Below, in pieces: positions 56,940 to 58,895 of a stretch of 64,000 nt of DNA. The notes below the pieces were generated by a model. That model saw nothing but the letters and a program-made list of their open reading frames with translations, ran no database searches and had not been told where the DNA came from. The translations under genes were made by a program, and so were the position numbers. The DNA comes from an uncultured Acidobacteriota bacterium (GTDB taxonomy: Bacteria > Acidobacteriota > UBA6911), in the NCBI GenBank assembly GCA_963827655.1, contig CAWHCF010000043.1:32001-96000 (forward strand), given 5' to 3'. Position 1 is the first letter of the stretch. Each line of letters begins with the position of its first letter.

Positions 56940-58895
56940 CTAAAGGTTAATTTGAACCAGGTCTTCCTTCTTCTTGCCCAGCACCATTTCCTGGTAGAGC
57001 CGGCGCATCATGAGCTCTTCTTCGTGGGCGTTCTGAGGACCCTCCGTCTTTTCCCGCACACGAGCCGCCGCTACGGGATCGATGGTCAAATTGTGCTCGA
57101 AACTATCCAACGCGAGCGGCTTGTTGTTGGCATAGACCGCATGCTTTCCGTGTTCCTTGTACCACTTCGCGACGGTTGCGTTGGCGTGCATCTTCTCGAT
57201 GATATTGCGCCAGCCCACGCCCGTGTTATAGGCGCAGAAAGAAATCTCTCCCTCCTGGGTGCCGTAAGGAATAATGCACATCTCGGTGCGGCGGAAGTCG
57301 TAATTGAACAAGTCCTGGAACCACATCCCGGCAATAAACAGGAAATTCCACGGATCCTTTCTACGCTCGACGCCCTTGCCATAATCCTTGCCGGTTGCGC
57401 CCATGGTCTTGTCGAACTTCTTGAGGATATCGAGCAGATTCAGACTGGCGGGAGCCTTGAAGGGATTGTAGTTCTTGAGCATCGCCAGCCCCATCATGAC
57501 ATTGGAGAAAACCTTGCCCCGCGCTGCGTCGGTCACCTTCTGCATGTCCTTTATCAGCCGGGGAATGTTTATGAACTCGGGAACCGCAGCCCTCTCCTTG
57601 GTCTCCTTGTTGATCATGATCGCGGTTCCCACACCGCAATTCGGATGGCAGCCGCAGCTCATCTGTCCCCAATCGGCTTGAGGCCCATGAACCAGATCAG
57701 CGAAATCAGCAAAAGCGCTCATGAGAGAGATGGGAAACCAGTCGCGGGTGGGCTCGGTAATTCCAACCTGGCTTTTTACATCAGCCGCCATGTGTGAAAG
57801 CGTGTAGCGCTGGCGGTGGCGGCGCTCATCCGTAATCTCCTCGTCGCGACCGGTGAACGAAACGGGTTGAAACGACACGAAGGAGATCTTCTTGGGATTG
57901 GCCATCGCAAACTCGACCACCGGTCCCACCTGGTCGTTATTGACGCTGTTGACGAGTGTCGTCACAAGAACGATCTCGACCCCGGCGGCGTGCAGGTTAT
58001 TAATGGCGCGAAGCTTGACATCGAAAAGATTGCCGATCTTGCGGTGACCGTTGGCGTCGTTTCCGATCCCATCGAACTGGAGATAGGCATAGCGAAGCCC
58101 GGCCTCGTAAGCTCGCCTGGCAAAACTAGGATCCTTGGCGAACTCGATGCCGTTGGTGGCGGCCTGGACGCTGTTGTACCCCACCTTGCGCGCGTACGCG
58201 ATGGCATCAAAGAAATAGGGAGACATCGTCGGCTCGCCGCCCGAAAACTGAATCGACATCTGGCGCCGCGGCTTGATCGTGATGGCGTTATCCAGGATTT
58301 CCTTGATGTCATCCCAGCTCAGCTCGTGGACGAACCCAACCTGGTTTGCGTCCATAAAGCACGGGTCACACATCATGTTGCAGCGGTTGGTCAGATCTAC
58401 GGTTAATACCGATCCCCGGCCATATCGAATCGTGCTGGAGCCGTGATTGTGCAGAGTCTTGTCATTATGGGCATCGATATCTCGACCGGGATACACAGTC
58501 TCCACGTGTTCCAGGAACTTCTTGTCCACAGCCATCATGTCTTCGAACGTGCCATGAGTGGGGCACTCTTTGACCATCCAGATCTGGCCGTCACGTTCCA
58601 GGATCGTGGCCTTGATCTCGCCGACCTTTTGGTTGATCAGAACTCGGTAATCAATCTCACCGTCAAGAATTTTCTTTCGAGTCTCGACGACGCACTTTGG
58701 ACAGAGAGAATCGGTCGTGCGCGGCCAGCCTAGCGGAGGCTTGGATTTCTGCCACGATTTCTGCAGCGGTTTATCGGACCACTTAGGAGTGAAGGAGGGA
58801 TTGGGCTTGTACTTGTTGAAGAACTGGATTACGTCGAACGCGGTCCCTGCTGCCATGGCGAAGGCTTTCTCGACGTATTTCACGGGTCTGTGCAT
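56940..58895 (-). CDS. tes: Radical SAM protein, tetraether synthase (Tes/GDGT-MAS, MJ0619 family) homolog
   Basis: SLCPKC...KECPTHG rubredoxin-like site, DLTNRCNMMCDPC, FSGGEPT, YLQFDG, FQPVSFTGR, CHPNCG, MWFQD, FCAYN. Confidence 0.8.
   Translation of the reverse strand: MHRPVKYVEKAFAMAAGTAFDVIQFFNKYKPNPSFTPKWSDKPLQKSWQKSKPPLGWPRTTDSLCPKCVVETRKKILDGEIDYRVLINQKVGEIKATILERDGQIWMVKECPTHGTFEDMMAVDKKFLEHVETVYPGRDIDAHNDKTLHNHGSSTIRYGRGSVLTVDLTNRCNMMCDPCFMDANQVGFVHELSWDDIKEILDNAITIKPRRQMSIQFSGGEPTMSPYFFDAIAYARKVGYNSVQAATNGIEFAKDPSFARRAYEAGLRYAYLQFDGIGNDANGHRKIGNLFDVKLRAINNLHAAGVEIVLVTTLVNSVNNDQVGPVVEFAMANPKKISFVSFQPVSFTGRDEEITDERRHRQRYTLSHMAADVKSQVGITEPTRDWFPISLMSAFADFADLVHGPQADWGQMSCGCHPNCGVGTAIMINKETKERAAVPEFINIPRLIKDMQKVTDAARGKVFSNVMMGLAMLKNYNPFKAPASLNLLDILKKFDKTMGATGKDYGKGVERRKDPWNFLFIAGMWFQDLFNYDFRRTEMCIIPYGTQEGEISFCAYNTGVGWRNIIEKMHANATVAKWYKEHGKHAVYANNKPLALDSFEHNLTIDPVAAARVREKTEGPQNAHEEELMMRRLYQEMVLGKKKEDLVQINL

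Follow-up and report, generated by a model that had tools for sequence, protein, structure and literature searches.

A tetraether synthase homolog without the N-terminal cluster motif in an uncultured Acidobacteriota bacterium

Branched GDGTs (glycerol dialkyl glycerol tetraethers; brGDGTs) underpin widely used palaeothermometers for soils and lakes, and the acidobacterial enzymes behind them are still unproven. A stretch of 64,000 nucleotides from an uncultured Acidobacteriota bacterium (GTDB lineage Bacteria; Acidobacteriota; UBA6911; NCBI GenBank assembly GCA_963827655.1, contig CAWHCF010000043.1, positions 32,001 to 96,000 of the forward strand), called the window in the following, carries a gene whose product, P0001, was originally predicted to be a bacterial tetraether synthase (Tes/GDGT-MAS) homolog and thereby a sign of a candidate brGDGT producer. 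This raises the question which reaction such a protein may catalyze and whether its presence is enough to predict brGDGTs. P0001 is a member of the Tes/GDGT-MAS radical S-adenosylmethionine (SAM) family, and we cautiously favor, at slightly better than an even chance, that it is an intact stand-alone Tes-family gene of a type here called B1, the product of which would couple lipid tails tail-to-tail to give ester-bound membrane-spanning lipids rather than tetraethers. The idea that acidobacterial Tes homologs are brGDGT enzymes is not new (Zeng 2022; Halamka 2022; the cited literature is represented throughout by parts of each source), P0001 is one more member of a known and very large group with thousands of near relatives, and this single gene alone adds nothing new. 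The part that may be useful is a split within the family: type A co-occurs with, and in two genomes adjoins, a Ger/PlsA-like gene, whereas the commoner type B has one Fe-S cluster fewer and lacks such an association.

The gene, the protein family and its metal sites

The gene and the parts of its product lie as follows in the window (residue numbers are those of P0001):

56940..58895, minus strand: P0001, B1-type Tes/GDGT-MAS-family radical SAM protein, open reading frame (ORF) of 651 amino acids (aa), supported by Pfam, NCBIfam, the structure 7TOL and an AlphaFold2 (AF2) model
58907..58912, minus strand: Shine-Dalgarno-like AAGGAG, 11 nt upstream of the ATG at 58895, read from the sequence
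56884..56914, minus strand: intrinsic-terminator-like hairpin with a 12-bp stem, 8 G-C pairs and a T-run, 26 nt past the stop
58725..58895, minus strand: N-terminal extension, residues 1-57, with a predicted helix at 4-27 (alignment and AF2)
58554..58703, minus strand: rubredoxin-like metal site C65-P-K-C68 ... C111-P-T-H114 (PF23545; CX2C-X42-CX2H)
58443..58469, minus strand: segment H143-N-D145-K-T-L-H149-N-H151 at the site of the archaeal [Fe4S4]N motif CxxxCxxCxxH
58359..58382, minus strand: radical SAM cluster motif C172-N-M-M-C176-D-P-C179, invariant in 121/121 sequences
57234..57638, minus strand: C-terminal auxiliary cluster region with C420, M524, C540, Y544 and C554 (7TOL alignment)
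56943..57188, minus strand: C-terminal extension, residues ~570-651 (~80 residues; alignment and AF2)

The reading frame starts with ATG and runs for 651 aa without internal stops in the window sequence, and this start is also backed by many 651-aa homologs at 100% coverage. The hairpin behind the gene is no more than a consensus match, of a kind of which the region holds 5 against 3.2 expected from shuffles. The intergenic stretch upstream of the gene measures 282 bp, no sigma-70-type promoter was found ahead of the gene on the minus strand, and the gene looks monocistronic. About half of its sampled words are present in soil and rhizosphere metagenomes, and contigs from soil RNA (three libraries, two studies) tile the ORF, each piece differing from it at 0-5 positions, which is consistent with transcription, short of proof; the 5' pieces end loosely, so that no transcript start is claimed. 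Taken together, P0001 is an intact stand-alone gene that is probably transcribed.

Family membership is established on several levels. The top NCBIfam model for P0001 is the Tes equivalog NF045702 with 323.4 bits, followed by TrsS (NF045646) with 210 bits and by the next family with 77 bits. The only close solved structure is the GDGT-MAS of Methanocaldococcus jannaschii (7TOL, E 2e-61 over P0001 residues 93-568 by phmmer). An AF2 model built from a 51-row alignment (pLDDT 90.6, pTM 0.90) superposes in Foldseek on 7TOM and 7TOL with a TMt of 0.89-0.90, a root-mean-square deviation of 2.7-2.9 A over 533-537 aligned columns and an E-value of 1.3e-36, the next structure being MoaA with a TMt of ~0.5. 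Pfam places Zn_ribbon_HMPTM (PF23545; the HMPTM/MJ0619-type zinc ribbon) at residues 58-121 (E 2.4e-14) and Radical_SAM at residues 168-329 (E 7.9e-17). Upon a homolog search with P0001, all of the 8000 candidates scored (8000/8000) reached E<=1e-3, and identity was 74-97% over 97-100% of the length for the best 120 relatives, so that the likeness is not due to chance. The assignment as a Tes/GDGT-MAS homolog, the core of the original prediction, is thereby borne out.

The archaeal enzyme contains four metal sites, namely a rubredoxin-like iron (C9X2C12X20C33X2H36), a surface [Fe4S4]N cluster (C73, C77, C80 and a His), the SAM cluster and an [Fe4S4]C cluster with a labile Met439, as well as a conserved Tyr459 (Lloyd 2022). 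All motifs that had been listed for P0001 are present as claimed, i.e., the rubredoxin-like site, CxxxCxxC, CHPNCG, MWFQD, FCAYN and HNDKTLHNH. In P0001 together with its 120 listed relatives, C65, C68, C111 and H114 are invariant (121/121); the spacer between both halves of this site measures 42 residues compared to 20 in the M. jannaschii protein MJ0619, corresponding to an insert of ~22 residues. The SAM-binding GGEP motif is found at G219-G220-E221-P222. In the C-terminal region, C416-H-P-N-C420-G, M524-W-F-Q-D and F553-C554-A-Y-N are recognizable, and C420, M524, C540, Y544 and C554 do not vary among the 121 B1 sequences. By the phmmer alignment to 7TOL (the chain numbering of which is native +20), M524 corresponds to the labile Met439, Y544 to the conserved Tyr459, and C420, C540 and C554 to conserved C-terminal cysteines; it is from this alignment that the cysteines presumably binding the C-terminal cluster in MJ0619 are read.

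The N-terminal auxiliary site differs. HNDKTLHN....HGSS of P0001 sits opposite the archaeal NGCPYDCGLCPNH in the phmmer alignment to PDB 7TOL, so that the archaeal CxxxCxxCxxH is missing at this position, and the motif occurs in 0/121 B1 sequences; the replacement by a His-rich segment was thus rightly noted from the sequence. Among the 121 B1 sequences, H143, D145 and H151 are kept in 121 and H149 in 120. Across the wider B clade (defined below) only H151-G152 of the segment persists, and in the AF2 model it is the lowest-confidence block (pLDDT 69); on these grounds a replacement metal site formed by H143, D145, H149 and H151 is only a possibility. The extensions that had been reported at both termini are equally real: compared to M. 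jannaschii GDGT-MAS, P0001 has ~57 residues ahead of the rubredoxin CxxC and ~80 residues at the C-terminus. The N-terminal one is conserved across the B clade with a pLDDT of 85-95 in these blocks, and the first part of the C-terminal one is conserved in the B clade as W-x-x-x-G-R/K-H-x-I/V-Y-A, with a pLDDT of 81-95 as far as about residue 640.

Phylogeny and distribution of the A and B types

Of 1.84 billion cluster representatives searched, 559 matched at E<=1e-30, and the full-length ones fall into two groups. The first scores around or over the Tes cut-off and most of its members contain CPxxCGxCxxH; the second scores 141-414 bits and comprises P0123, P0128, P0132, P0133, P0139, P0140, P0146 and P0175 as well as both proteins of this genome. 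In a quick IQ-TREE analysis (LG+C20+F+G4) of 55 of 58 rows, the wrong-strand ORFs L109, L096 and L097 being left out, and with two acidobacterial TrsS sequences as root, the lower-scoring group forms one monophyletic clade of 30 rows, termed B (SH-aLRT 99). TrsS branches outside Tes plus B (SH-aLRT 100), and B itself arises from among proteins that score over the Tes cut-off. P0001 therefore lies inside, not outside, the Tes family; a place outside the Tes clade had been named as grounds against the original prediction. The deeper forks are supported only at SH-aLRT 86-91 and the tree contains long branches. A constraint uniting the other Tes rows was 30.4 log-likelihood units worse, with p-AU 0.032 in the approximately unbiased (AU) test, a weak result in view of the long branches and of a test group that was defined with knowledge of a first tree.

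The motif of the N-terminal cluster is found in 0/30 B rows, in 20/23 other Tes rows and in 2/2 TrsS rows, and hence the cluster was most likely lost on the B stem, as judged from these motif counts. An archaeal representative, P0229, which scores 584 bits on NF045702, also lacks the motif, as do 120/120 of its listed relatives, the named ones being from MSBL1, Aenigmarchaeota, Thermoplasmatota and Woesearchaeota. [Fe4S4]N is therefore not universal in the Tes family and its loss is not peculiar to bacteria, so that the altered electron input in the bacterial clade, which the original prediction had put forward, can at most be suggested. The idea that loss of the surface cluster reflects adaptation to oxygen was dropped, since the lead that the cluster-less archaeal representative is Nitrososphaerota-like was not borne out. 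Beside this, a sub-branch of B that is sister to the B2 type (representatives P0132, P0146 and P0175) has no cysteines at the C420 and C540 positions, nor the N-terminal cluster; if these proteins are real, the same C-S intermediate would be impossible for them.

Close relatives of P0001 occur in at least 600 GTDB species genomes. The best 80, at 68-89% identity, are mostly labelled as Acidobacteriota (Pyrinomonadaceae, Blastocatellia, Terriglobia, Bryobacterales, Solibacteraceae, Acidiferrales, gp2, gp5 and gp18), the nearest among them being a 'gp18' metagenome-assembled genome (MAG) with 89%. B1 genes at 68-76% identity were also seen on MAG contigs labelled as other phyla (L024, L029, L038, L053, L056, L059 (Gemmatimonadota), L062 (Eisenbacteria), L010, L025, L077), and one Gemmatimonadota row and one Eisenbacteria row nest within the acidobacterial B1 clade, which could be due to gene transfer or mis-binning. 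For the phylum as a whole, 401 Acidobacteriota genomes were sampled evenly, a family match being defined by E<=1e-40 and type A by a score over the NF045702 cut-off. A family member is present in 245/401 genomes, type A (~540-580 aa) in just 45/401; these tallies include three unpublished genomes (G152, G024 and G049) with one below-cut-off match each, on which no claim rests individually.

The genome of the window (8.18 Mb, 53 contigs, 90.3% complete) contains two B-type copies, one on contig C43 (the window) and one on C8, and no type A over the cut-off. The second copy is the following:

G000:C8:136739-138706 (L089:9740-11710; L002:1276-3246): B2 paralog P0122, 656 aa, 51% identical to P0001

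P0122 scores 301.6 bits on NF045702 (cut-off 450). B2 orthologs with an identity of 70% or more are confined to the genome's own family (24/25 genomes) and one neighbouring family, and the remainder of the class holds the B1 type only. In this genome the gene upstream of B2 codes for a PEMT-like methyltransferase and the one downstream for an LpxD-like hexapeptide acyltransferase, with lpxB 3 kb upstream and an ABC-2 transporter and a GT9 heptosyltransferase downstream. Of 23 B2 loci, all from one bacterial family and a neighbouring one, 20 have the LpxD-like gene behind B2 and 13 have the PEMT-like gene ahead of it. Selenocysteine in the B2 copies was considered and rejected: the apparent internal stops are the natural C-terminal stop read through, and none falls within residues 16-624.

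Ether-lipid genes, the proposed reaction and its rivals

In bacteria, ether bonds are known to be formed by Ger/PlsAR or by the elb system (Halamka 2022; Sahonero-Canavesi 2022). The search of the genome for ger, which had been proposed as a check, gave 0 matches to the PlsAR/Ger markers PF06050 and PF09989, with PF09989 being positive in a Thermotoga control, and the 1146-aa Ger-like protein of a genome of the same family had no tblastn match in this genome. An ElbD-sized NAD_binding_4 protein was likewise not found, the PF07993 matches being confined to frames of 197-440 aa. For this assembly, which also has no over-cut-off Tes, the label of a candidate brGDGT producer thus finds no support.

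At the level of the phylum, PF09989 is present in 79/401 genomes, namely in 30/45 with type A, in 21/200 with below-cut-off matches only and in 28/156 with no family match (the 49 non-A genomes with this marker were split into 21 and 28 by hand from two lists). The Ger marker in Acidobacteriota tracks the archaeal-like type A and not the genomes with below-cut-off, B-like matches only. Since related genomes are not independent, the Fisher p-value overstates this association; 13 of the 15 type-A genomes without PF09989 come from one family (f30). In two genomes from the family to which the genome of the window belongs, G063 and G210, the type-A tes gene is directly followed on the same strand by a gene of PlsA/Ger architecture (2x BcrAD_BadFG plus DUF2229), the third gene being a 432- or 485-aa ORF without a Pfam match:

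L145 (G063:C123:3000-14000), 2530-8685, minus strand: type-A tes and Ger-like cluster of G063
L146 (G210:C22:37000-49000), 2878-9229, plus strand: type-A tes and Ger-like cluster of G210

This trio is a candidate gene cluster for ether membrane-spanning lipids. No description of the split into A and B, of the loss of the N-terminal cluster throughout clade B or of the association of type A with Ger was found in those parts of the literature that were covered; Fig. S10 of Halamka 2022 and table S21 of Sahonero-Canavesi 2022 may be relevant to the novelty of these points. Should the split hold, not all Tes homologs ought to be weighed alike when brGDGT producers are predicted from genomes.

The catalytic core of the Tes reaction is intact in P0001, and tail-to-tail coupling is therefore, by homology, the best-supported function. 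By analogy with M. jannaschii GDGT-MAS (Lloyd 2022 and a 2026 review), the cluster at C172/C176/C179 would cleave SAM, the resulting 5'-deoxyadenosyl radical would take a hydrogen from a lipid tail at its terminal methyl carbon, the tail radical would be held as a C-S intermediate on a sulfide in the auxiliary cluster of the C-terminal region (C420, C540, C554 and the labile M524), and a second SAM would activate a second tail for attack on the first, forming the C-C bond. Likely substrates in an acidobacterium would be the iso-branched (iso-C15) chains of membrane glycerolipids, the coupling of which by bacterial Tes homologs was proposed before (Zeng 2022), and the product would be a membrane-spanning lipid of the iso-diabolic-acid type. 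As no known ether-forming enzyme is found in the assembly, the predicted products would be ester-bound and not branched tetraethers. With the surface N-terminal 4Fe-4S cluster missing, electrons would need another route to the SAM cluster, perhaps straight from the rubredoxin-like iron.

Two observations from the literature fit the B type as a coupling enzyme to which ether formation is a separable add-on. Acidobacteria make iso-diabolic acid, yet a homolog of mss was not found in them (Sahonero-Canavesi 2022), and the brGDGT producer E. aggregans has a single Tes homolog (32% identity, E 4e-61; Zeng 2022), in the same range of similarity as P0001 to GDGT-MAS, and also a Ger homolog (Sahonero-Canavesi 2022). 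More speculatively, as a proposal to which we give somewhat less than an even chance, the B clade might be the long-missing iso-diabolic acid synthase of mostly aerobic Acidobacteria, a slimmed Tes with two 4Fe-4S clusters, the rubredoxin iron and possibly a new His3/Asp site (H143/D145/H149/H151), and true brGDGT synthesis would occur mainly where Ger/PlsA is also present, often with type A in a tesA-ger pair. If true, this would explain why strict screens report 'Tes' in only 3/14 producers of iso-diabolic acid.

Several points weigh against P0001 being a coupling enzyme for ester-bound lipids. The protein is just 28% identical to GDGT-MAS, stays under the equivalog cut-off (323.4 vs 450 bits) and, of the four metal sites present in the solved enzyme, is without one, and the group compared in the AU test was chosen only once a first tree was known. 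The assembly in which Ger/PlsA was not found is 90% complete, and PF09989 is present in each of the 6 other genomes sampled from its family (6/6), so that the absence here may be a real loss or the gene may lie in the missing 10% of the assembly. In the window, a lipid-gene context is absent around P0001; its neighbours (DUF4440, cytochromes c, GFO/IDH/MocA) adjoin the gene in 0/80 loci of relatives, and the best-conserved neighbours in other loci (SurE, PCMT and a VTT-domain protein) reach only 17-18/80 loci each. According to a 2025 paper and a 2026 review, as far as these sources were covered, no bacterial Tes homolog was shown to act on lipids, and no paper with an experimental test of one was found in the literature covered. 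Finally, under strict thresholds Tes homologs were found in only 3/14 acidobacteria producing iso-diabolic acid, for which another pathway was suggested (Sahonero-Canavesi 2022).

The alternative that survives best, although we consider it unlikely, at around one chance in a few, is that proteins of the B clade have diverged and perform some other radical SAM reaction, the substrate being a different hydrophobic compound or no lipid at all. They might, for instance, form a different C-C or C-S bond in an envelope lipid, act in a TrsS-like role or carry out the pterin methylation that was formerly ascribed to MJ0619. Divergence of this kind would agree with the score below the equivalog cut-off, the length of the stem branch (1.12 changes per column, from the 58-row first tree), the loss of one cluster, the segments added at both termini and the insert in the rubredoxin domain; the position of B2 between PEMT-like and LpxD-like genes near lpxB hints at envelope lipids other than phospholipids, and some database names still read '7,8-dihydro-6-hydroxymethylpterin dimethyltransferase'. 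However, the residues linked to the coupling mechanism, i.e., the ligands of the C-terminal cluster and the equivalents of Met439 and Tyr459, are all invariant and the whole chain superposes on GDGT-MAS, TrsS has a lower score than the Tes model (210 vs 323 bits) and branches outside, and the pterin methylase activity was not corroborated by Lloyd 2022.

Less probable still, and in our view improbable, is that P0001 is the tetraether synthase of a brGDGT-producing acidobacterium and couples iso-C15 diether lipids into branched GDGTs. The homology evidence (NF045702, 7TOL and fold) is identical for this reaction, E. aggregans makes brGDGTs with its single, similarly distant homolog, and the missing tenth of the assembly could hold the Ger/PlsA marker seen in the other six genomes of the family. 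What speaks against it is that the assembly is without a Ger/PlsA marker, an ElbD-sized reductase or a type-A Tes, that the Ger marker goes with type A in the phylum sample, and that in two genomes of the same family it is type A and not B that adjoins the Ger-like gene. That the gene is a decaying or silent relic, for which nothing but the lack of an operon context speaks, is hardly credible given the full-length frame, the cofactor ligands all invariant among 121 relatives, the ribosome-binding site and terminator, and the near-identical contigs in soil RNA libraries.

Some further features of the window were noted. The stretch downstream of the terminator (54226-56842, minus strand) comprises a DUF4440 protein, a multihaem cytochrome c with CXXCH motifs of the c3/c7 type, a further cytochrome-c-like protein and a Cu2_monoox_C-like ORF. 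The idea of a conserved operon was rejected, as the window neighbours never recur in the loci of 80 relatives and housekeeping genes stand there instead, in at most 18/80; a Gms-like radical SAM/SPASM neighbour was also set aside, being one cluster in 7/80 loci of relatives with weak partial matches only in this genome. An inositol-catabolism-like set at 14460-21000 and 26120-27076 comprises GFO/IDH/MocA oxidoreductases, GDPD, a xylose-isomerase-like TIM barrel, KduI/IolB, a TPP enzyme (IolD-like) and a PfkB kinase. Two Ser/Thr protein kinases of ~900 aa fused to PD40/WD40-like beta-propeller repeats are located at 11406-14075 and 22947-25655, both on the minus strand, and a 583-aa ORF with a DUF772 transposase domain (4041-5792, minus strand) falls in the stretch of strongest negative GC and AT skew of the window. 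Three TonB-dependent-receptor-like genes (CarboxypepD_reg plus OMP_b-brl_4) each appear as two ORFs corresponding to the N- and C-terminal parts of the Pfam model, which may be frameshifts, assembly errors or pseudogenes:

7770-9728 / 10056-11084, minus strand: split OMP_b-brl_4 gene
41232-42092 / 41848-44430, minus strand: split OMP_b-brl_4 gene
49416-50519 / 50516-52702, minus strand: split OMP_b-brl_4 gene

Comparison with known systems

The closest characterized relative is the GDGT-MAS/Tes of M. jannaschii (MJ0619; 7TOL, 7TOM), with which P0001 shares the fold of the whole chain, the rubredoxin-like CX2C...CX2H, the CX3CX2C motif and the region of the auxiliary C-terminal cluster including M524 and Y544 as equivalents of Met439 and Tyr459. 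In contrast to MJ0619, P0001 is without the [Fe4S4]N motif (C73, C77, C80, His), with H-x-D-x3-H-x-H in its place, it carries ~57 N-terminal, ~80 C-terminal and ~22 rubredoxin-domain extra residues, and its putative substrates are bacterial fatty-acyl lipids and not archaeol. The radical SAM (seleno)protein TrsS (NF045646) is the second-best NCBIfam match of P0001, with 210 bits; unlike P0001, it keeps the N-terminal CxxxCxxC..H (2/2 rows), and it passes its own cut-off in 4/401 Acidobacteriota genomes, this one not being among them. Mss, the membrane-spanning lipid synthase of Thermotoga and Thermoanaerobacter, considered here along with Ger, is also a radical SAM enzyme, and its tail-to-tail coupling of bacterial fatty acids was demonstrated, making it the only bacterial coupling route shown experimentally (Sahonero-Canavesi 2022). 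However, Mss is just remotely related to Tes and, in the part of that source covered, is reported to be absent from Acidobacteria (Sahonero-Canavesi 2022).

Among bacteria, 456 Tes homologs, including those of Koribacter, S. usitatus and E. aggregans, were described with a proposed role in brGDGT synthesis (Zeng 2022), and a brGDGT role was likewise proposed for the S. usitatus homolog (Halamka 2022); later papers, as far as covered, still call the role of bacterial Tes homologs unconfirmed. P0001 shares with these homologs the family, the phylum and the proposed role in membrane-spanning lipid or brGDGT formation. The labels of the supplementary tree include acidobacterial genes of B-type length, such as a 2100-nt Edaphobacter gene (Zeng 2022), but A and B types are not separated in the parts of both papers covered, whereas the genome analyzed here has B only, in two copies. 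The most instructive comparison is with the acidobacterial type-A Tes, e.g., of G063 and G210, which belongs to the same family and phylum and is co-resident with B1 and B2 in sister genera. Type A is shorter (~540-580 aa), keeps CxxxCxxCxxH and is 35-36% identical to the B2 paralog of its own genome, and it differs from B as well in its company, the Ger/PlsA marker co-occurring in 30/45 type-A genomes and the type-A gene of G063 and G210 standing directly upstream of the Ger-like gene.

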